Sequence record: NC_047754.1 | Reading direction: 5' to 3' (one strand) | Length of the DNA stretch: 64,000 nucleotides | DNA from: Escherichia phage phiAPCEc03 | In this document: in pieces, positions 4,039 through 32,666 of the stretch | Numbering within the stretch: the first letter of the stretch is position 1 | Layout: each line of letters begins with the position of its first letter | The notes under the pieces: model-generated | The model's input: only the letters and a program-made list of their open reading frames with translations | What the model was told of the DNA's origin: nothing | The model's database searches: none | Made by a program: the position numbers and the translations under genes

Positions 4039-4115
4039 GCTTCGGTAGCTTAGCGATCTAAAGCACTCGGCTGATAACCGAGAGATCGGGGGTTTAAATC
4101 CCTCCCGGAGTACCA
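4039..4115 (+). tRNA. tRNA-Ile (anticodon GAU)
   Basis: Acceptor GCTTCGG/CCGGAGT with G-U pairs, perfect anticodon arm CTCGG-CTGATAA-CCGAG, T-arm GGGGG-TTTAAAT-CCCTC, CCA encoded. Confidence 0.8.
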
Positions 4116-10566: not shown

Positions 10567-11223
10567 TTGGAAAAGTTCTTACAATTATTAACGGTACTGC
10601 TCCAAGAAGCGAAAGATCCAGCATCGCTTCTTAAACGTCTGCTAACTATCTTAGTTGCTGTCATTATTTTCTTATTTGTTAGTAATACTAGCGAGGTGAT
10701 GTCATTCTTAAAGACTTTCTCCACGTCTGCGGTCCTACAGGATGTTCAAACTCAAAGGATAGATAACTTTCCTAATGTAGCTAGAGAAAAGAGCATGGTG
10801 CTTTTCTCCCAAACGGGTGCGGATGCTGTTTTTGTCGTCAAGTATAAACCCGATGCCGTTAATGATTATTCTAACATTATTGCATGGGAAAGCAATGCGC
10901 AATTAGATAGGGCTGACTTGGCTGATAAAGCGGTAAATAAAACGTCTGAGCTATTTAGACGTCACTTAGACGGCTTCAACTACGCATCGGATTTAAGTGT
11001 AAAAGTAAATAAATACATGGGGTTAAATATACCTGCGTTTAAGAACGTTACTTTTAATTACATATACACTTGTCCGTATTTCAATCTAAACAATATCTAT
11101 GCTGGATATATTGGTATTGCTTGGAAAGATAATCCTGTAGATGCAGCCAATTCTGAGAAATTTAACGAGTATTTAACAAAGCTCTGTTCCCCACAACAGA
11201 GATCTTTAGGTAGATCAATATGA
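10567..11223 (+). CDS. putative holin (TTG start)
   Basis: AGGAGG RBS; one hydrophobic transmembrane segment; immediately upstream of and overlapping the endolysin gene. Confidence 0.4.
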   Translation: MEKFLQLLTVLLQEAKDPASLLKRLLTILVAVIIFLFVSNTSEVMSFLKTFSTSAVLQDVQTQRIDNFPNVAREKSMVLFSQTGADAVFVVKYKPDAVNDYSNIIAWESNAQLDRADLADKAVNKTSELFRRHLDGFNYASDLSVKVNKYMGLNIPAFKNVTFNYIYTCPYFNLNNIYAGYIGIAWKDNPVDAANSEKFNEYLTKLCSPQQRSLGRSI

Positions 11224-11633
11224 GTTTTAAATTTGGTAAAAATAGCGAAAAACAATTAGCTACCGTTAAGCCAGAGCTACAAAAAGTAGCTCGTAGAGCT
11301 TTAGAATTATCTCCATATGATTTCACGATCGTACAGGGTATTCGTACAGTAGCACAAAGTGCCCAGAATATTGCTAATGGTACTTCATTTTTAAAAGATC
11401 CTAGTAAAAGCAAGCATATTACTGGGGATGCCCTTGATTTTGCTCCATACATTAATGGCAAAATTGATTGGAATGATTTAGAAGCATTTTGGGCAGTTAA
11501 AAAGGCTTTTGAACAAGCGGGTAAAGAACTAGGCATTAAACTTCGTTTTGGTGCTGATTGGAATGCTTCGGGAGATTATCACGACGAAATAAAACGTGGT
11601 ACCTATGATGGCGGTCATGTCGAACTAGTTTAA
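11220..11633 (+). CDS. lys: endolysin, L-alanyl-D-glutamate peptidase (M15-like)
   Basis: 137 aa; metal-ligand pattern HITGDALDF and GGHVE; matches size and features I recall for T5 endolysin. Confidence 0.7.
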   Translation: MSFKFGKNSEKQLATVKPELQKVARRALELSPYDFTIVQGIRTVAQSAQNIANGTSFLKDPSKSKHITGDALDFAPYINGKIDWNDLEAFWAVKKAFEQAGKELGIKLRFGADWNASGDYHDEIKRGTYDGGHVELV

Positions 11634-20960: not shown

Positions 20961-21845
20961 ATGTATAACTTTAAAGATAAACTAAGACAAAATGCTGGCA
21001 AAACAAAACCTAAAGAGAACAATAATGTTCCTAATGCCAAAGTATTACCATTTCCAGAACTATCTCAAGAAGAAAAAGATAAGTTAGCATTTATGTTTGA
21101 TGCCCTTCTAGGGCTAAATGGACGTTTATACTCCTCACTCAATATTAATGAGAAACGTCTAGTAGAGATGTTCTGTAAGCGTTATCAAGTTACTTCAAAG
21201 GGTAATTCTTATAAAGAAGGTGAGAAAGCATTTACAGTCTTAAAGATTAGCGCATATGCACATCGTTTCTTAGTTTATGGGTTACAGATGGAATACTTCA
21301 CCATCCCATCATTTAGCTCTTTCCATATCTTTGAAGATGAACGAATGAATATTGATGATCTCTATGGGGATACGTACAAATACTCAGGAAGTCCATTCCA
21401 TGATGCATTAAGGAGCTACCCAACTAACTACTTACCAGTTAGGGCATCACAAGGTAAAGCTAGCATCTTCGCTGTTTACTCAGGATCTAAAGCATCGGAT
21501 CTAGAAACTTATATATTTAAAGAGCGTAAATCTGTACTTCCAGATGAAGCATTGTATAATAATCCATTGCTTCCAGAAAAAGAACCAGAGAAGATTGATG
21601 TAACCCCACCAATCCCATCTGATTCCCAGTATTTAATTTATGAGAAACAAGTTAAGTTATCCCTAGAAATTGGGTTAGTTACACCGCTTGCTGCAGCATT
21701 CATCAATAGGTATCTAGAAATTCCTGACGAGTTCCACACACGTTATAATACGAATATTCAGATAACGGATGAACTAATAGCTATTGCAAAAAGTACGCCT
21801 ACAGATACTGAGGCGTATCAAAAAGCATACCAAGAGTTACTATAA
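20961..21845 (+). CDS. hypothetical protein
   Basis: 294-aa ORF with GGAGA RBS; last gene before the repeat-rich noncoding region. Confidence 0.6.
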   Translation: MYNFKDKLRQNAGKTKPKENNNVPNAKVLPFPELSQEEKDKLAFMFDALLGLNGRLYSSLNINEKRLVEMFCKRYQVTSKGNSYKEGEKAFTVLKISAYAHRFLVYGLQMEYFTIPSFSSFHIFEDERMNIDDLYGDTYKYSGSPFHDALRSYPTNYLPVRASQGKASIFAVYSGSKASDLETYIFKERKSVLPDEALYNNPLLPEKEPEKIDVTPPIPSDSQYLIYEKQVKLSLEIGLVTPLAAAFINRYLEIPDEFHTRYNTNIQITDELIAIAKSTPTDTEAYQKAYQELL

Positions 21846-22382
21846 TATTCTGCAAGTCTCGGTGCACAATACCTGTACCGAGACAATAATACAAACTCTC
21901 GTTGACAGATAGCTAAATGTATGTTATCATAACTCTATGAGTTAATAGAATTAACCATTTAGAGTTGCCACACAGAAGGTGTGGTGGTTCAGTAATTTAA
22001 AATTACTAACTTGTAGCGGAGGATACGGAGCGACAGGACAAGTTAATAAGTAATTTAATATAAATTGCTAGAAACATCACGAGACCTTCTGGCGGGGGCA
22101 AAGCTCTATATGAGAACCCTGGGGGATCTTATATTTAAAATAAAAGTAAAACTTTTGACCACATAATTTACATTCAAGATGATACACCTGTTGCCGCTCA
22201 TCTGCTAGGATGGCACAACACTTTCTTCTAGACTCCTAAGTTTTTATGAAAACTCTAGTCAACTCAGGCGGTTTTCATTGTTCCTAGAAACTCTAGCAAT
22301 AGGCGGTTAATACAGGGCGGTTATAGGGAGGGCGGTTATTTCTAGGAGACATTTTTTGAAAACACATTTCCAGAAATTACTA

Positions 22383-22981
22383 TCGGATTTGCACATTGTG
22401 TTTCTAGAAATTTATGGTCGGATTTGCACAAACGCCTAAGTTTTCAGGAACTCTTACTCTCCTGAAAATGGCAGCATTATTTCGGGCCGAAGGCCCGTGA
22501 TTGCCTGAGTTTTTAGAGTCACAATAATTTTCACTTGTCAAGCTATTTTGCCCCATTTAGCTAATAAAATTTTACTTTATCTGCACTTATCTCAAATTAA
22601 CCCAAATCTTCTCAACTCTTCCCCAAAATCCCCGCAAATCAGGTGCTCCGCACCAAACATGCACCTCTCCCACAGTTCCCCCAAGTTTCTCTCGCTCTCT
22701 CAACTTCTCCCCAAACTCATACAATCACACACCCTCCAATCGAAGTCACAAAAATCTTGTCGGATTCGCACAAATAAACCCCTGTCGGATTTGCACATAT
22801 TCTAGCTAATTCCACAGGATTGATGCGCAGCATCGGATTGCTGTAGTTTTTAGGAAAATTCATTGTCGGATTTGCACACTATAAAAATTTTTCGGGTCGG
22901 ATTTGCACACTACTAAAAATTGTCGGATTCGCACATACACGCCCACGCGTAACACCCGTGGAGCAATGTCGGATTTGCACA
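22383..22981 (+). repeat. iteron-like array: 8 direct copies of 13-bp TCGGATTYGCACA
   Basis: Copies start at 22383, 22428, 22759, 22785, 22866, 22897, 22923 and 22969, all in the same orientation within a noncoding region. Confidence 0.85.
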
Positions 22982-23033
22982 AAAGCGCAGGGCAATTGCC
23001 CTGCCCGCCTGAATGCAAATACAAATGAGAATC

Positions 23034-23165
23034 ATTCGCATTTAAAAAGCGGAATGAGAATGATAATGATTCGCATTTAAAAAGTGAAATGAAAATTATT
23101 CAGGAAGTGAAACGATTCTCATTTAAAAAGTGGAATGCAAATGATAGTGATTCGCATTTAAGAAC
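23034..23165 (+). repeat. 4 direct copies of ATTCGCATTTAAAAAG-containing unit
   Basis: Units at about 23034, 23069, 23115 and 23150, period about 35-45 bp. Confidence 0.75.
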
Positions 23166-23191
23166 GGAAGTGAGAAACACTGTTATTTAAG

Positions 23192-23273
23192 TTATCCACA
23201 GACTTATTAACCGCATAATTTGACTTGACAGAATCCTAGCCATTTTGAGGCGTTATTAACAGACTTATCCACA
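23192..23273 (+). promoter_or_regulatory. DnaA-box-like 9-mers (TTATCCACA), two copies
   Basis: Exact TTATCCACA at 23192-23200 and 23265-23273. Confidence 0.55.
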
Positions 23274-23442
23274 GCTTATCCTACTGTATAAATATACAGT
23301 ATTCCTACGCAGTGAATAATTCTAATATAGTCCTAAAACGTCCTAGATCGCATTCTAACGCGTTTAATTTTGGTGGGGATACTAAAACAAGGGGTTATCC
23401 GGTTGCAGGCGTGAAAAACGGGGATCTGCTCCCCGCTTGTTG

Positions 23443-24541: not shown

Positions 24542-24772
24542 TTACATTAAAACAATTTTAGCGGCTTGTTTTTTGGTGCAATGTTCCGCCTTCAGGGTAT
24601 CCAGCAAAAAGCCAGCCGTTTGCTGGTCAATCTTATCAGCGTTATACAATTCTTGGATGGTGTTATAAGTTTTAGCAATGCCATATTCTTGCACCATTTC
24701 GTGAATAATAACGCGGTTAGATACCCAGCCTTGAGCGGTGAACAGATGACTAGCAGAAGAATAAGCAACCAT
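24542..24772 (-). CDS. hypothetical protein
   Basis: GGAGG RBS before internal ATG (MVAYSSASH); the listed ORF extends to 24829. Confidence 0.5.
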   Translation of the reverse strand: MVAYSSASHLFTAQGWVSNRVIIHEMVQEYGIAKTYNTIQELYNADKIDQQTAGFLLDTLKAEHCTKKQAAKIVLM

Positions 24773-24889
24773 TTTAAGCCTCCAATTTTTGGGAAAATTT
24801 TCAACCGTCCTCGAACGGTGTAAGGGCATTATAACAAAAAAGGCCGCCGATTATGGCGACCTTTACAAAACTTTACATTAGATTATTTA

Positions 24890-26158: not shown

Positions 26159-26540
26159 TGTGGATAAGTCTGTGCAAAAGTCCCTATATCGCCGCCTATC
26201 GTGTCAAATTATTTTGTGCTGTGGATAACGTTGTGGATAACTTAAATGATAGTGGTTCTCACTTAGGCCGATAGTTTCTTATAGTTATTATTTCTTATAA
26301 TTATTATTTCTCATTAATTTATAAGTATATTATATATCATGAAATAGTTAGTTGGCTAATGAGATTTTCCGTGATTAATAGTCTGCTAATAATTTAAGCC
26401 GTTACAATCCACCAGCATGATTATCATCCTAGCAATTATTAGTCTGCTATCTTTCCGATGCATACTAACAGATAAAAGTCAATTAATTTATTTTATAAAA
26501 TAAGTAGTTATCCACTGGAAAATAGAAGTCAAGTGGATAA
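26159..26540 (+). promoter_or_regulatory. DnaA-box-like 9-mer cluster, mostly in reverse orientation
   Basis: TGTGGATAA at 26159-26167, 26220-26228 and 26232-26240; TTATCCACT at 26507-26515 and AGTGGATAA at 26531-26539. Confidence 0.55.
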
Positions 26541-26987
26541 CTAGGAAAATTTCATTTTTGCTTCTGGGGATAAGTTATCAACAAGGCTAGAATGCGCCTA
26601 AAACGCCCTAGAACGCGATGAAGTTTTTAGCCATCTCATCATAAAGGGATAAGCCGTTTATCGCTGTCACGAGCTTTTTAGGTTTTGTCAAGTAGGGCAA
26701 AGTAAATATAAATGAAAAAATTACTTGCCTATTTGCTATGTTTTGTGGTATTCGCGCGCCCGTTTCTTTCAATTTTAGGCCGTCGCCGCACGCCGTCCGG
26801 TGGATCGTGTCTTTACGTTTCTTTACAAAAATAAGGTTGCGCCATTTTCGGGAATCCCCTATTATTTATCTCGTAGGGCGGCAATGACGAACTACACGGC
26901 GGGAAGTTTACCACCACGCTCTTTAAAAATTGGGTACATCTTAAAGCCTATCGGCGGTAAACTTATTCATTATAAGGAATCGACGAT

Positions 26988-27191
26988 ATGAAACAAACGC
27001 TTTTGATCACTGGCAAGCCTATTAAGGCACTAGATATCAAAACAAAAAACTTGTTGACAGTAGCACAAAGATCAGTAAAATATAGATTCACGCAGTACAA
27101 GAAAGGTCGCCAGCAAGGTTTAGAAATGATCTGGCGAAATATTATGATTGACTTGAAAGAAAATCATAAAAAACTGCAAAAAACCGCTTGA
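26988..27191 (+). CDS. hypothetical basic protein
   Basis: 67-aa ORF with AAGGA RBS. Confidence 0.4.
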   Translation: MKQTLLITGKPIKALDIKTKNLLTVAQRSVKYRFTQYKKGRQQGLEMIWRNIMIDLKENHKKLQKTA

Positions 27192-27216
27192 CAACCTAGC
27201 CGATAGGTTTTAAGAT
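27188..27216 (+). promoter_or_regulatory. sigma70-like promoter
   Basis: -35 TTGACA, 17-bp spacer, -10 TAAGAT. Confidence 0.4.
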
Positions 27217-27420
27217 GTACCCAGTTCGATAAGAGCGATAACTTGATAAAATTTGACGGTCGGTGCTTACCATAATGCATCCCGCCCCCCTAACTGGGAT
27301 ATAGCGGCCTACGTGGAGTTCTTTAAATCGATTATACTGGCGAGCGGATTGTTACTTATTACCTGCTACTTTCTAGCAGGTAATGCGGAACAATCCACCA
27401 AATAACTCGGAGTTTATATT

Positions 27421-27672
27421 ATGCAAAACGTTATTACCGCGCCTAAAATTGGTCAATCCGTCTTCATTCCTTTCGTTACTAAAACGGATGAATTAACCGG
27501 AAAGGCTGAACGCATTAAAGGTGCGGCGCTTATGCCGTTCGATACAATCGACGCGGTATATGCTGAAAATGAACGTAGTAACAACGGCAAACCTGTTTTT
27601 AACGTTCGCGTTAAATCCGGCGACGTTGTAAAGGTTGTTCAACGTAACGAAAAATGGGAAGCTGTTCTGTAA
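27421..27672 (+). CDS. hypothetical protein
   Basis: 83-aa ORF with GGAG RBS. Confidence 0.6.
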   Translation: MQNVITAPKIGQSVFIPFVTKTDELTGKAERIKGAALMPFDTIDAVYAENERSNNGKPVFNVRVKSGDVVKVVQRNEKWEAVL

Positions 27673-27770
27673 TTTAGTGTTAACTTTATATCCCCCTTAT
27701 TTCAGGGGGATATAACGATTAACATTAAGTTAATCTAATCCCTTAAATTAAACTAATAGGAGTTTATATC

Positions 27771-28178
27771 ATGACTAACGTTAAAACCGCAAAATTCGCA
27801 TGGAATGAAGAAAACACTCAGAAAGCTGTTTCCATGTATCAGCAGTTAATTAATGAAAACGGTTTAGATTTCGCAAATAGAGACGGTTTAAAAGAGATTG
27901 CAAAAGCAGTTGGCGCGGCTTCCCCTGTATCCGTTCGCTCAAAATTGACCAGTGCAAAAGCCTATCAAAAAAGCGATAAGCCGCGTAAAGTTGGTGGCGG
28001 TAGCTCTGTGCGTAAAGCTCACTATGTGCGCGTTATCGCTAAACATGCTATTGATTCCGGCATTATCAAAGACGCCGACGATCTGGCAAGTCTGGAAAGT
28101 GCAAAACTTGAAACGCTGGACGCAGTAGCGCAACTGTTAGGCGTTGCCGATGAAGTAAAACAAGCCGCAGGCGAATAA
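27771..28178 (+). CDS. A2: A2-like pre-early protein (tentative)
   Basis: 135-aa ORF next to the A1-like gene; size matches what I recall for T5 A2; assignment rests on size and synteny only. Confidence 0.4.
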   Translation: MTNVKTAKFAWNEENTQKAVSMYQQLINENGLDFANRDGLKEIAKAVGAASPVSVRSKLTSAKAYQKSDKPRKVGGGSSVRKAHYVRVIAKHAIDSGIIKDADDLASLESAKLETLDAVAQLLGVADEVKQAAGE

Positions 28179-28269
28179 TAGTTATACCTTGCCCCCTTTT
28201 AGTGAGGGGGCAATAATATAACTGTTTAGCGATAGTTATTTTCTTCCCTTAAATCAGGAGTTTTAAAAA

Positions 28270-28467
28270 ATGATTTTCTTTCCTACTGAATCATTAATTC
28301 TAGGCTTGTTTATTATGGCGGCCTCATTATTATTTGCTTATTTTCAAAATGATTTAGATTCATATTATTTTAAACGTAAATCTAAGTTAGCAAAACGTTT
28401 GGGCTTGCTTTGTTTTATCGCTGCCGTTGCTTGTGGTGTTAGTTCTAGCCTAATGCCTTTAAATTAA
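28270..28467 (+). CDS. small membrane protein
   Basis: 65-aa ORF with two hydrophobic segments. Confidence 0.5.
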   Translation: MIFFPTESLILGLFIMAASLLFAYFQNDLDSYYFKRKSKLAKRLGLLCFIAAVACGVSSSLMPLN

Positions 28468-28557
28468 TGTTGCAAATTATAACGCCTATTATTCGAGGCG
28501 TTATATTTGGCAATATTGCCGTTATTAATCTAATCCCTTTAATGGAGTTTTATTACT

Positions 28558-30228
28558 ATGATTATTTCCGCAGAAAAACAAACCGTTATCCTGAAAATGG
28601 CCGCTGACTTTAATTTCTATGGTAAACGTCTGCGCGCTACTAAACTGGAAGTCTGCGACGATATATCAAAAGCGGTCTACGATACAACGAAGCATTCAAC
28701 CGCTATCTGCGACTGGCTGGAAGCAAATAAACCAGCTAAACCGAAAGCGGCAAAAGTAGCAAAAGCCATTAAAAACGATGAGCGCCCAGAAGCGGCGGGG
28801 ATTGTTTCTAGTACGGTTGAGCAATGGGAAGTAAAACAGGGTAAACGCTTTATTATTACGTCGATTCAGAATAATACTTTCCCACATAAAAACTTTTTAG
28901 CAAGTCTGGAAAAATTCGCTGAATATATCGGTGCTGATTTGCTTGTTTCTAAGTATATTTATAATAAAAACGGCTTCCAGAATGGAGAAGGTGCAGACGG
29001 TATCAAATACGATCCCGCATTTGATAAATATATTTGCAGCAAAAACGTGTTTTTAAATAACCGCCGTTTTGCTTTCATGGCTGAAATTAATGTTTTGCCT
29101 ACCGCAGACTATCCGCTTTCAGGATTTGCAGAAACTGCAACGGCTTTAAATATTGAAGGGCTGGCAATTGGTCACGCTAAAATTACCGCTGAAAGCGTGC
29201 CAGCTTTAAAAGGTGAAGTAGTGCGCCGTATGTATTCAACCGGAACGGCAACGCTCAAAAACTACATTCAGCAGAAAGCAGGACAAAAAGCCGAGGCGCT
29301 GCATAACTTCGGTGCGCTTATAGTTGAGTTCGACGACGACGGGGAATTTTTTGTTCGCCAGCTTGAAACAATGGACGAAAGCGGGGTGTTTTATGATCTG
29401 AACGTTTGCGCTACTCCTGCCGGATGCTATGAGACATCGGGGCATGTTTTAGGCTTGCAGTATGGCGATATTCACGCCGAAAAATTAGATGAGGAGTGCG
29501 CCGCCGCATCTTGGGGGCATGGTGATACTTATGGGCTAGTAGATATTCTTAAACCAAAATATCAGTTTGTGCATGACGTTCACGATTTTACATCCCGCAA
29601 TCATCATAACCGCGCATCCGGTGTATTCCTAGCTAAACAATACGCCGCCGGACGTGATAAAGTTCTGGATGATCTTATCGATACGGGGCGCGTGCTGGAA
29701 TCAATGGAACGTGATTTTAGTCAAACAATCATTGTTGAATCTAATCACGATTTGGCGCTATCCCGTTGGCTTGATGATCGTAATGCTAACATCAAAGACG
29801 ATCCAGCAAACGCCGAGTTATATCACCGCCTGAATGCTGCAATTTACGCGGCAATCGGTGAACACGACGAAACGTTTAACGTGCTAGATTATGCGTTGCG
29901 CAAGGTTGCAGGTTGTGAATTTAACGCCATTTTCCTGACCACTGATCAATCTTTCAAGATTGCAGGCATTGAATGCGGCGTACACGGTCACAATGGCATT
30001 AACGGCAGTCGTGGCAATCCTAAACAATTTAAAAAATTGGGCAAGTTAAACACGGGGCATACCCATACCGCCAGCATTTATGGCGGCGTATATACCGCTG
30101 GCGTTGCTGGTAGTCTGGATATGGGTTACAACGTTGGCGCGTCAAGCTGGACGCAAACGCATTTAATTACCTATGCAAATGGTCAACGCACTTTGATTGA
30201 CTTTAAAAACGGTAAATTCTTTGCATAA
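28558..30228 (+). CDS. A1: A1-like pre-early protein, metallophosphoesterase-family nuclease
   Basis: 556 aa; calcineurin-like motifs GDIH, SNHD, GVHGHNG and GHTHT in canonical order; size matches T5 A1. Confidence 0.7.
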   Translation: MIISAEKQTVILKMAADFNFYGKRLRATKLEVCDDISKAVYDTTKHSTAICDWLEANKPAKPKAAKVAKAIKNDERPEAAGIVSSTVEQWEVKQGKRFIITSIQNNTFPHKNFLASLEKFAEYIGADLLVSKYIYNKNGFQNGEGADGIKYDPAFDKYICSKNVFLNNRRFAFMAEINVLPTADYPLSGFAETATALNIEGLAIGHAKITAESVPALKGEVVRRMYSTGTATLKNYIQQKAGQKAEALHNFGALIVEFDDDGEFFVRQLETMDESGVFYDLNVCATPAGCYETSGHVLGLQYGDIHAEKLDEECAAASWGHGDTYGLVDILKPKYQFVHDVHDFTSRNHHNRASGVFLAKQYAAGRDKVLDDLIDTGRVLESMERDFSQTIIVESNHDLALSRWLDDRNANIKDDPANAELYHRLNAAIYAAIGEHDETFNVLDYALRKVAGCEFNAIFLTTDQSFKIAGIECGVHGHNGINGSRGNPKQFKKLGKLNTGHTHTASIYGGVYTAGVAGSLDMGYNVGASSWTQTHLITYANGQRTLIDFKNGKFFA

Positions 30229-30284
30229 TTAAATTATTCCCCTAGCGGCTTGAAATATAGTCGCTATTACAGGAGTCACAAAAA

Positions 30285-30542
30285 ATGAAAGTTACATTAC
30301 CCAAAACATTGGACGAAAAAGTATTCATTTCACCGGATGAAATGGAATCCGATAAAGTTTACAGCTTCGGGCCTATCCTAGCCGCCAAAACTAATACTGA
30401 TGGTATTATTTCCGTCGATTCCCGTGATAATGATGTTGTTCCTTTTGATGACTATGGCGCTTTTTATGAATGGCTAAGTGATAATAATCTACCCGTAAAC
30501 GGTGAATTAACGCCGTACCAAATGCAGATTATTATCAAATAA
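30285..30542 (+). CDS. hypothetical acidic protein
   Basis: 85-aa ORF with AGGAG RBS. Confidence 0.55.
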   Translation: MKVTLPKTLDEKVFISPDEMESDKVYSFGPILAAKTNTDGIISVDSRDNDVVPFDDYGAFYEWLSDNNLPVNGELTPYQMQIIIK

Positions 30543-30580
30543 ATTAAATTCCTTATTAAACTAACTGGAGTTTTATAAAT

Positions 30581-30973
30581 ATGAAAAAGCAAAATATTCC
30601 ATTTGATCGCGCTCAGTCTTCCATTGTTCTGGTTTATTCTAATGGCGAACGTTACCACGTCGAGGCGGGGCACGTTATTGATGATCTATTAGATTTCAAT
30701 GACGCTTTACAGGTTACAACATTCGCATATACGCAGGGCAAACTAACCAGCCATATTAAAGCAAAAGGCGTTTATGTTGATACGGTGAAGCAAGAAACGA
30801 TTATCATCGACGCCGTAAAATCCGGCCTTGCCTTTGCAGTTGTCGCGCCTTGCCCCGCTTGCCTTGATGATCAATTGATTTCTGCAAAAGTATATACTTG
30901 TGCTGGTATTCGTTCCAGCGTATCAGGTGAGGATGTTAGTTTTATTGCCGATGCGTTGGCTTATGGTCTTTAA
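30581..30973 (+). CDS. hypothetical protein
   Basis: 130-aa ORF with GGAG RBS. Confidence 0.6.
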   Translation: MKKQNIPFDRAQSSIVLVYSNGERYHVEAGHVIDDLLDFNDALQVTTFAYTQGKLTSHIKAKGVYVDTVKQETIIIDAVKSGLAFAVVAPCPACLDDQLISAKVYTCAGIRSSVSGEDVSFIADALAYGL

Positions 30974-31053
30974 TAGTTAATTTATTATTACCCGCTTATA
31001 AATAGCGGGTAATGCTGAAATAACTAAATCCCTTTAATGGAGAACGTAACAAA

Positions 31054-31788
31054 ATGAATCAAGTTAAAACGAATATTACCCGTAATTTCCCGCATATTTC
31101 CCGCGTCATGATTTGGGATCTGGACGGCACTATCATTAATTCTTTCCATCGTGTAGCGCTTTGCTTTGATAGTGAGGGCAATTTAGATTTAAATAAGTAT
31201 AAAAATGAAGCCTGCAAACATCATTTAATAATGCAAGATACTTTATTGCCATTAGTTGAATACATGCGCCAGTGCATGAATGACGCAAATACTTTAAACA
31301 TTATTTGCACCGCTCGACTAATGAGCAAGTCGGACTATTATTATTTGCGCAAACAAGGCTTGCGCGGTCGTGGTAATAGTAATATCCGCGTGTTTTCCCG
31401 TGATACACTGCATAAATATTTTGAGGCTGATAAAGTTAGCGAAATATACCACAGCAAGGACGCAGTATATAAATCTTATTATTTTGAATTATTCAAACAA
31501 CTATACCCAAACGCTGATTTTACAATGATTGACGATCATAAAGGCGTACTATCAGCGGCGGCATCATACGGATTTAAAACGCTGGACGCGCAAGCCGTTA
31601 ACGATATTCTATCAATCGGCGTGACATTGATAGGTGAAACCTTTATTGATGAATCCCTCGATGATGATAATGATTATCAATTCCTAGCTGACCGTTTAAA
31701 ATTATGCTGGGAAGGTATGACCGAGGAAGAACGCGCAGAATATAGTTGCAGCCCGCAACAATATATTGAGAAATTAAAAGTTGCGTAA
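31054..31788 (+). CDS. dmp: HAD-family 5-prime-deoxyribonucleotidase
   Basis: 244 aa with HAD motif I (WDLDGTI) near the N-terminus; size and position match T5 dmp. Confidence 0.6.
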   Translation: MNQVKTNITRNFPHISRVMIWDLDGTIINSFHRVALCFDSEGNLDLNKYKNEACKHHLIMQDTLLPLVEYMRQCMNDANTLNIICTARLMSKSDYYYLRKQGLRGRGNSNIRVFSRDTLHKYFEADKVSEIYHSKDAVYKSYYFELFKQLYPNADFTMIDDHKGVLSAAASYGFKTLDAQAVNDILSIGVTLIGETFIDESLDDDNDYQFLADRLKLCWEGMTEEERAEYSCSPQQYIEKLKVA

Positions 31789-31963
31789 TAATTAAAGTTG
31801 AAATAGTTTCATCCTGCAATTAAAATGGTTGCAGGATGAAACAGTTACCCTGCTAATAGTAACGGGGGTGGCGGTTAGCAGACTAAGTATTTCCGCCGGA
31901 GGCAGTGAGCACATCTTCATGTGTAATCTTAGGAAATTTGGCAAAAAGGTTAATTAGCGCTAA

Positions 31964-32461
31964 TTAATTATGGTTTGCAAACTCACCGTGGTAATGCTCC
32001 CTGGCTTTTCTAAGTTCTTTTTCAGCCTGCTCAAGAGTTTTAAAAGTTCCTATGGTAATTCTATTACCATTTACACGTAGTTTTGCTTCGAACTTTCCCT
32101 CCCCGCGTTTATATACTCCCTTAACCCCTGTAGACTCATTCTTCCATCCCGAAGAGTTTTTTCCATTCTCTGCATTTGTTGCTTTACGTAAGTTATTCCA
32201 CCTATTGTTGAAGGGGTCTTGATCTTTGTGATCAATGAGAAATTCACCTGGGTCTTCTCCTGTCATGTATAGATACGCTACCCGATGGGCCTTATATAAC
32301 CCATTATTACCCATTGATAGGGATATTCCTGAACTATTTCTACTACCTGCTGGTTTACCTTTACGACTCCCTGAATTCCAAGTAAATATACCTGCCTCTG
32401 GATCATAGTCATATTTTTTCTTATATTCTTCTAATGATAGAAGAGGTTTATGATTTGCCAT
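31964..32461 (-). CDS. HNH homing endonuclease with AP2-like domain
   Basis: Core AHRVAYLY...IDHKD...NNRWNNL, C-terminal GVYKRGEGKFEAKLRV; paralog of 16419-16955. Confidence 0.6.
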   Translation of the reverse strand: MANHKPLLSLEEYKKKYDYDPEAGIFTWNSGSRKGKPAGSRNSSGISLSMGNNGLYKAHRVAYLYMTGEDPGEFLIDHKDQDPFNNRWNNLRKATNAENGKNSSGWKNESTGVKGVYKRGEGKFEAKLRVNGNRITIGTFKTLEQAEKELRKAREHYHGEFANHN

Positions 32462-32666
32462 TTATCTTGAATCTCCTCCGAGAACTTCTTGAGCCATCAT
32501 TCCACTCCCGCTCAAACTCCGCACGTTTCTCTTCAAACTTCCGCTCCCTTTCCGCAATCTCCCGCGATACTTCCGCAATATATTTACGATGGCTGTCGAT
32601 AGCCGCAGTCATTCCGAAAATTCCCGCAAGTATCCCGATAATAAAAGCAATTATAATACTAAACAT
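32448..32666 (-). CDS. small membrane protein
   Basis: 72 aa, N-terminal transmembrane helix then charged tail. Confidence 0.45.
   Translation of the reverse strand: MFSIIIAFIIGILAGIFGMTAAIDSHRKYIAEVSREIAERERKFEEKRAEFEREWNDGSRSSRRRFKINGKS

Follow-up and report, generated by a model that had tools for sequence, protein, structure and literature searches.

In bacteriophage T5, the pre-early portion of the genome (8%) enters the cell first and kills the host, after which its expression is shut off by an A1-dependent mechanism. Here we describe a series of stem-loops that punctuates the equivalent genes, the A2-A1-dmp operon, in Escherichia phage phiAPCEc03; the DNA analysed, referred to below as the window, is a stretch of 64,000 nucleotides from record NC_047754.1. 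Several known systems may be set beside it. The stabiliser hairpins of Escherichia coli malEFG (repetitive extragenic palindromes, REP, and bacterial interspersed mosaic elements, BIME) and of Rhodobacter puf have no U-tract and permit read-through, while intrinsic termination by E. coli RNA polymerase requires a U-tract. The stem-loops of T4-type PeSL cassettes (early promoter plus stem-loop) are efficient terminators that mediate modular shuffling. At lambda sib, cleavage by ribonuclease III (RNase III) destabilises the upstream message, an effect which depends on antiterminated read-through. The early operon of T7 contains five RNase III sites (R0.3, R0.5, R1, R1.1 and R1.3), at what we take from Dunn and Studier to be their positions; these agree with the intergenic gaps in the T7 RefSeq record. 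When folded in the same way as the hairpins described here, the five T7 sites showed tops of 9–13 bp, an internal loop, lower stems of 5–8 bp and no U-tract.

The hairpins of the phiAPCEc03 operon are real, enriched and intergenic, they are selected for pairing, and selected in the sense RNA, and they lack a U-tract. We propose, with a probability of about 40%, that they act as RNase III processing and 3′ protection elements of a single polycistronic pre-early mRNA, by analogy with the sites of T7.

Seven stem-loops were found in the operon (HP0–HP4, HP6 and HP7; Table 1), one in the 5′ untranslated region (5′ UTR) and the others after g1, A2, g3, A1, g6 and dmp. An earlier reading made from the sequence only had listed five perfect stems, all of which are present within 1 nt of the coordinates that it gave; the hairpins after g3 (HP3, 10 bp) and after A1 (HP4, 8 bp including one G·U) are additional to that list. 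Between positions 27217 and 31910 there are six perfect stems of at least 9 bp, whereas 300 dinucleotide shuffles gave 0.23 on average and never more than 2, and all six fall within the 779 non-coding nucleotides of the operon. These stems (9–14 bp) carry 4–6 G-C pairs, and folding revealed that they are the upper parts of longer, interrupted helices of 17–27 bp (z = −4.7 to −8.2). A hairpin of −10 kcal/mol or below, starting 10–17 nt past the stop codon, was found for six of the seven operon genes, the exception being the 38-nt g5-g6 spacer.

The modules follow a shared plan. The stop codon is followed, at a distance of 0–3 nt, by the base of the helix, which consists of an A+U-rich lower stem of 7–15 bp, an interruption by one or two mismatches or by a small internal loop, a perfect top of 10–12 bp and a loop of 5–9 nt. 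Downstream of the hairpin come the leader ATCCCTT(T/A)AAT, a GGAG sequence, 8–10 nt and the ATG; the hairpin of the 5′ UTR ends 25 nt ahead of the first start codon. Masking of the Shine-Dalgarno sequence by the hairpins was considered and rejected: GGAG lies outside the helices, with the sole exception of a weak 5-bp AUUCC/GGAGU pairing around HP4.

The modules containing HP0 and HP6 (27340–27423 and 30968–31056) share the sequence TTATTACC(T/C)GCT...TAGC(A/G)GGTAATGC(G/T)GAA, and those containing HP1, HP2 and HP3 with their leaders (27667–27773, 28174–28272 and 28462–28560) can also be aligned with one another, which suggests that the intergenic modules are partly paralogous and may have spread by duplication. 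A second, weaker hairpin (ATAACTGTT-tagc-GATAGTTAT) at 28214–28240 overlaps the 3′ strand of the HP2 lower stem; its TATAACT sequence can pair either upstream or downstream, so that two alternative folds are possible. This weaker hairpin occurs only in A2-g3 spacers of the type present in the window.

Conservation was analysed in a set made up of 56 IMG/VR loci with relatives of A1, phage BB1 and four Epseptimavirus records, from which 45 T5-like loci were obtained. A hairpin was present at each of the seven positions across these loci, with many compensatory changes. HP0 was kept with such changes in 24 variants. In HP1, a single stem position appears as C-G, G-C, A-U and U-A, 97% of the cells are paired, and the covariation score was 0.109 versus 0.049, with none of 500 shuffles reaching 0.109. 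HP3 shows double changes at seven pairs, some of them in the lower stem, with 98% of the cells paired; again no shuffle out of 500 reached its score, and the helix is kept even in a relative with 67% A1 identity. Compensatory A-U/G-C changes were also found in HP6, and HP0 and HP7 behave likewise.

In some phages, hairpins of unrelated sequence but the same geometry stand in, at the same site, for those after A2, A1, g6 and dmp. The replacements after g6, for example, form helices of 24–26 bp, one with a 12-bp top, and T5 and many relatives carry an unrelated hairpin after A2 (the T5 'palindrome B') which itself shows compensatory changes. Over all distinct hairpins of the 45 loci, the apical perfect stems cluster at 10–12 bp. 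The total number of pairs has medians of 21–24 at five of the seven positions, the non-homologous replacements included, and of about 10 after A2 and A1.

One-sided changes, which were counted only in columns whose majority pair is Watson-Crick, gave G·U on the plus strand in 17 column events versus A·C in 4 (145 versus 7 cells; binomial p = 0.004). Third-codon transitions in A1, A2 and dmp of the same phages would have created G·U in 305 cases and A·C in 306. Since this background is symmetric, the bias in the stems is not mutational, and because G·U pairing is confined to RNA, and here to the plus strand, the selected structure is that of the sense mRNA. The asymmetry therefore argues against operators, cruciforms and antisense transcripts. 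It bears directly on the idea that the hairpins are DNA elements, serving either as palindromic operators (for A2 or A1) or as hot spots where recombination shuffles gene cassettes. Two of the hairpins are indeed annotated as bare palindromes in T5, the adjacent gene content is variable (g5 may be present, absent or replaced), and the modules look duplicated. However, the half-sites are not conserved but change by compensation, the mismatches are of the G·T type instead of A·C, and only on the sense strand (an asymmetry without meaning in double-stranded DNA or at a symmetric binding site of a protein), and loops of 5–9 nt with conserved internal mismatches are atypical of operators. We regard a role as DNA elements as highly improbable.

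More distant A1 homologs (37–49% identity) lie in unrelated gene contexts and were uninformative with respect to the hairpins. One of them, a phage contig (IMGVR_UViG_3300033141_001972) whose A1 homolog is 46% identical, contains three copies of a perfect palindrome of 16–17 bp, CATATAAGCATATTAGA-atat-TCTAATATGCTTATATG followed by CGCCGC, located after open reading frames (ORFs) at approx. 680–720, 2185–2225 and 4065–4105. Here, then, a hairpin also recurs as punctuation, but it is of a different kind.

The operon hairpins resemble intrinsic terminators in being G+C-rich stem-loops located after genes. They differ from them in the absence of a U-tract and in the presence of essential genes downstream: only 0–3 T occur in the 8 nt after the stem of all seven hairpins, compared with the at least approximately 5 T in 8 nt of an intrinsic terminator, and the medians across the 45 phages are 1–4. 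A terminator scan of the window reported none of the seven. The genuine terminators of the window are T-rich-tailed, as are strong post-stop hairpins elsewhere in it (5–7 T in 8 nt in six of them, and TTTAGGCA after 11220–11633), which bears out the contrast drawn by the sequence-only reading. Two U-less post-stop hairpins were found outside the operon, after the plus-strand ORF 20961–21845 and after the minus-strand ORF 24542–24829. The former, at 21856–21884 (GTCTCGGTGC-acaatacct-GTACCGAGAC), is strong and adjoins the region resembling the T5 injection stop (iss) described below.

Transcription must read through HP0 and HP1 to reach A2, and through HP0–HP3 to reach A1. A scan for sigma-70 promoters between the operon genes gave only weak, chance-level matches (9–10 of 12 positions). 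The −10-like sequence TTTAAT in these spacers was rejected as a promoter element: it abuts GGAG, so a transcript starting from it would lose its ribosome-binding site. Because the hairpins have no U-tract, and essential A2 and A1 lie downstream with no convincing intergenic promoter, they are unlikely to be efficient intrinsic terminators.

A weaker variant of this function, in which the hairpins are partial or conditional terminators (attenuators) that make transcript levels fall along the operon and may be activated by a polymerase-modifying phage factor such as A1, deserves separate consideration. In the T5 record, HP7 corresponds to a 'putative rho-independent terminator' (69–105), HP6 to 'palindrome A' and the post-A2 hairpin to 'palindrome B', and the BB1 and Stitch records also label operon hairpins "terminator". 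Some of the hairpins found at these sites in relatives with 65–67% A1 identity carry T-rich tails like those of true terminators, and the hairpin of the 5′ UTR is well sited to switch off the whole operon. Moreover, A1 co-purifies with RNA polymerase, and pre-early shut-off requires it (PMC7472727, PMC10644984). Nevertheless, attenuation has to accommodate the T counts given above and the location of the essential genes A2 and A1 behind two and four hairpins, respectively, and long A+U-rich lower stems are not a feature of terminators. We consider it unlikely.

The geometry of the hairpins is, in our opinion, best matched by that of RNase III sites. In E. coli, this enzyme recognises in vivo a duplex of approx. 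24 positions and cuts it in mid-stem (PMC6212723). Compared with the 20–24 or so positions of T7-type sites, HP0, HP1, HP2, HP3, HP6 and HP7 contain 20, 27, 20, 21, 21 and 17 pairs; an irregularity is present, as in the T7-type sites, approximately 10–12 bp below the apical loop, and the hairpins lie between co-oriented genes of an operon that follows two sigma-70 promoters. As in the T7/T3 early operon, there would be a polycistronic early mRNA made by the host polymerase (its polycistronic nature is our own deduction), with one stem-loop before the first gene and one after most of the genes. The hairpins also share with the T7 sites a top of 9–13 bp, an internal irregularity, a lower stem, a total of at least approximately 20 bp and the lack of a U-tract. 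They differ in that the irregularities of the T5-type hairpins are 1×1 mismatches or small loops, in contrast to the larger asymmetric loop of T7, and in that their lower stems, which are longer, overlap with stop codons; the T5-type sites are, moreover, putative. Thus, of the three functions offered by the sequence-only reading, RNase III processing appears to be the best fit, judging from helices of 20–27 bp and the T7-like geometry; factor-dependent termination is possible but unlikely, and operators are disfavoured by the 17:4 ratio of G·U to A·C, the compensatory changes and the replacements.

According to the model that we favour, host RNA polymerase would start at the two strong promoters at 27054 and 27188 and read through all of the hairpins; on first-step-transfer DNA it would run off the end approx. 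70 nt beyond HP7. Host RNase III would most likely cut the five long helices (20–27 pairs) close to the irregularity, as at R0.3–R1.3 of T7, and would thereby divide the polycistron into mRNAs the size of single genes, whose 3′ ends keep a protective hairpin and whose 5′ ends carry the AUCCCUU(U/A)AAU-GGAG leader. The short hairpins (after A1 and, in some phages, after A2) and the terminal HP7 would be plain barriers to 3′ exonucleases. In the first-step-transfer stage HP7 needs no terminator role, since the end of the DNA is about 69 nt away, and its likely function there is protection of the dmp mRNA at its 3′ end. Of this model, read-through, cleavage by RNase III and stabilisation are all deductions.

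It is also possible, if somewhat doubtful, that all of the hairpins are nothing but barriers to 3′–5′ exonucleases, which keep breaks made by RNase E or by chance from spreading upstream, with no part played by RNase III. All of the evidence for selection at the RNA level fits such barriers equally well; the hairpins lie 0–17 nt after the stop codons, with HP7 69 nt from the run-off end, and this is the only way in which the short hairpins behind A1 and A2 can act. However, a G+C-rich stem of 9–12 bp suffices to block exonucleases, which leaves unexplained the helices of 20–27 bp at five sites, their A+U-rich lower stems, the mismatches 10–12 bp below the loop, and the retention of this geometry even in unrelated replacement hairpins. 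We ranked RNase III processing above pure exonuclease barriers because a barrier needs neither the 20–27-bp length nor the conserved mismatches.

Several points weigh against processing by RNase III. The hairpins have no sequence similarity to the T7 sites, which share a consensus among themselves, and none of the Rfam families matched positions 26500–32500 at E ≤ 1. HP4 (8 bp) and the T5-type HP2 (9–12 bp) are too short for this enzyme. The lower stems are mostly invariant, so the covariation support for them is thinner than for the tops, and the fit to RNase III is one of helix size and geometry. The terminator labels and the T-rich tails of some relatives, mentioned above, point in the same direction, and no transcript-end data for T5 or its relatives were found in the accessible literature.

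Parallels can also be drawn with the other systems. Like the REP/BIME elements of malEFG and the hairpins of puf, those of the operon are stable and located just past stop codons inside an operon. In contrast to REP, a genome-wide repeat family, they have unique sequences (save for the partial paralogy of HP0 and HP6) that are not repeated elsewhere in the window, form far longer helices and occur in a single phage operon only. The likeness to T4-type PeSL cassettes lies in repeated intergenic stem-loop modules among small early genes of variable content; unlike those cassettes, the modules contain no promoter that we could find. The sib hairpin, downstream of lambda int, is likewise a long hairpin behind a gene whose fate depends on RNase III, as is proposed for the hairpins described here; nothing suggests a switch of the sib type in the T5-type operon.

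The sequence-only reading had also pointed to a recurrent leader ahead of several start codons as a shared context for translation initiation. As a conserved, operon-specific motif the leader was confirmed: ATCCCTT[TA]AAT occurs in three exact copies and one copy with a mismatch, with no further exact copy within the 64 kb, and it is absent even from the minus-strand pre-early operon (no copy of ATCCCTT). It may have a role in translation. In the relatives, A2, g3, A1, g6 and dmp, and in many phages g1 too, are preceded by a CCCTT core with an A/T-rich run and GGAG behind it, an element which is much better conserved than the flanking sequence. The distance from leader to GGAG is 0 to approx. 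10 nt in the window and that from hairpin to leader 2–18 nt, and the leader neither pairs with GGAG nor covaries with the arm of the upstream hairpin. Pairing of AUCCCUU with a G-rich 3′ arm of the upstream hairpin is possible for HP1 and HP2, but was rejected: the covarying arm position is unmatched in the leader, and a G-rich 3′ arm is lacking in HP3 and HP6. The simplest reading is that the leader may be an operon-specific translation-initiation or regulator-binding element.

We consider it very unlikely that hairpin and leader together form a regulator-binding module, serving a translational repressor or activator or nut-like antitermination of the rrn boxB-boxA type. The leader is operon-specific and highly conserved while the hairpin sequences vary, and a variable hairpin followed by single-stranded C-CUUUAA resembles the boxB-boxA order of rrn operons. 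Nevertheless, the leader matches the boxA core GCUCUUUA at only six of eight positions and has neither the G nor the CUC that known boxA sequences invariably contain, for which reason boxA was rejected as its identity. The hairpin-leader spacing is variable, and the leader-GGAG spacing suits a translation-initiation element better. Rather improbable, too, is that these modules are the cis targets of A1-dependent pre-early shut-off, in which a phage factor bound to the polymerase or to the mRNA would turn the U-less hairpins into terminators, or else block the leaders; shut-off would then begin at the 5′-UTR hairpin, which guards the whole operon.

Three of the hairpins were already annotated in T5, and others in BB1 and Stitch. 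In the accessible literature we found nothing that treats the T5 hairpins as a system or tests their function, and the operon-wide pattern, the RNA-level selection, the two-turn geometry and the analogy with T7 are undescribed there. Selected mRNA structures and a private leader across A2-A1-dmp provide a concrete hypothesis of post-transcriptional control for T5 pre-early expression; if it is true, the T7 model of early polycistrons processed by RNase III extends to an unrelated phage family. The hairpins are probably mis-annotated in GenBank records as terminators or bare palindromes, engineering that deletes or moves pre-early genes should retain them, and they may serve as portable insulators for synthetic E. 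coli operons.

Table 1. Promoters, genes, hairpins and leader motifs of the pre-early A2-A1-dmp operon (window coordinates)
Feature	Coordinates	Strand	Perfect stem	Description
Sigma-70 promoter	27054–27081	+		TTGACA-16-TAAAAT; 11/12 match; positional equivalent of T5 P-H22 / T5P2
Sigma-70 promoter	27188–27216	+		TTGACA-17-TAAGAT; positional equivalent of T5 P-D/E20 / T5P1; begins 5′ UTR of ~200 nt
HP0 (5′ UTR)	27346–27396	+	27358–27384 (11 bp)	20 pairs, −28.1 kcal/mol, z −7.5; 12-bp top, interrupted middle, 7-bp base
g1	27421–27672	+		83 aa; T5.007 homolog
HP1	27670–27732	+	27686–27715 (12 bp)	27 pairs, −31.4 kcal/mol, z −8.2; 12-bp top, 15-bp base including g1 stop codon
Leader ATCCCTTAAAT	27738–27748	+		Exact; upstream of A2 Shine-Dalgarno GGAG
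A2	27771–28178	+		135 aa; T5 A2 homolog
HP2	28177–28226	+	28189–28213 (9 bp)	20 pairs, −27.8 kcal/mol, z −5.5; 10-bp top, 2×3 internal loop, 10-bp base
Leader variant TTCCCTTAAAT	28244–28254	+		One mismatch; ahead of g3
g3	28270–28467	+		65 aa, membrane protein; T5.005 homolog
HP3	28465–28518	+	28478–28505 (10 bp)	21 pairs, −23.5 kcal/mol, z −4.7; 10-bp top, two conserved mismatches
Leader ATCCCTTTAAT	28533–28543	+		Exact; abuts A1 GGAG
A1	28558–30228	+		556 aa; T5 A1 homolog
HP4 (TAGCGGCT/AGTCGCTA)	30243–30266	+	30243–30266 (8 bp)	Short, 8 pairs, −13.8 kcal/mol, z −3.0; one G·U here, perfect in relatives
g5	30285–30542	+		85 aa, variable cassette; absent or replaced in many relatives including T5
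Degenerate leader ATTCCTTATTAA	30548–30559	+		g6 leader
g6	30581–30973	+		130 aa; T5.002 homolog
HP6	30974–31026	+	30987–31013 (10 bp)	21 pairs, −23.4 kcal/mol, z −7.8; 11-bp top; begins directly after g6 stop
Leader ATCCCTTTAAT	31028–31038	+		Exact; abuts dmp GGAG
dmp	31054–31788	+		244 aa, 5′-deoxyribonucleotidase; T5 dmp homolog
HP7 (terminal)	31806–31842	+	31806–31842 (14 bp)	17 pairs with G·U, −24.8 kcal/mol, z −6.4; ~69 nt from DNA end equivalent (~31911)

The identity of the locus was established by comparison with other phages. The 5-kb stretch around the hairpins matches 451 phage records, the closest being Escherichia phage BB1 (96% identity); by this similarity the window is that of a T5-like phage (Tequintavirus, Demerecviridae), and the plus-strand genes at 27.0–31.9 kb are its version of the T5 pre-early (first-step-transfer) A2-A1-dmp operon. 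Gene identities were assigned from the annotations of BB1 and T5 (AY587007, AY543070) and by tblastn. Both promoters are close to the sigma-70 consensus, and the equivalent of the upstream one, PH22, has been confirmed in vivo as a pre-early promoter of T5 (PMC7472727). No match to g5 was found in T5. The interval between A1 and g6 (30229–30580, and the matching region of the compared loci L004–L042) contains g5, lacks it, or carries in its place an unrelated ORF starting with MAIKINLP; in the window and these loci A1 always has a 3′ hairpin, whose sequence varies with the cassette. A 46-aa ORF at 28467–28607, which overlaps HP3 and the start of A1, corresponds to 'ORF005' of T5 record AY587007, in which A1 is split, and is apparently an artefact of annotation due to this split.

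The first 196 nt of T5, reverse-complemented, align to 31712–31907, which places the equivalent of the physical left end of the T5 genome at about 31911. The pre-early operon thus reaches to approx. 120 nt from the physical DNA end. Beyond ~31911 the sequence runs on into the receptor-blocking/receptor-binding gene region, and because it continues past the terminus, the source assembly is circularly permuted, with the terminal repeat collapsed.

The divergent pre-early operon on the minus strand (25866–23440) is built differently, so hairpin punctuation is not a general feature of pre-early DNA. Its genes are tightly packed, overlapping or abutting; it has canonical terminators at 24864–24839 and ~23443–23415, and a single U-less hairpin (24535–24513) just before a Shine-Dalgarno sequence. 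The region 22300–23300, which corresponds to the known non-coding iss region of T5, is dense in repeats, with many copies of GTGCAAATCCGAC(A), 'TTTTTAAATGCGAATC' units and DnaA-box-like TGTGGATAA sequences.

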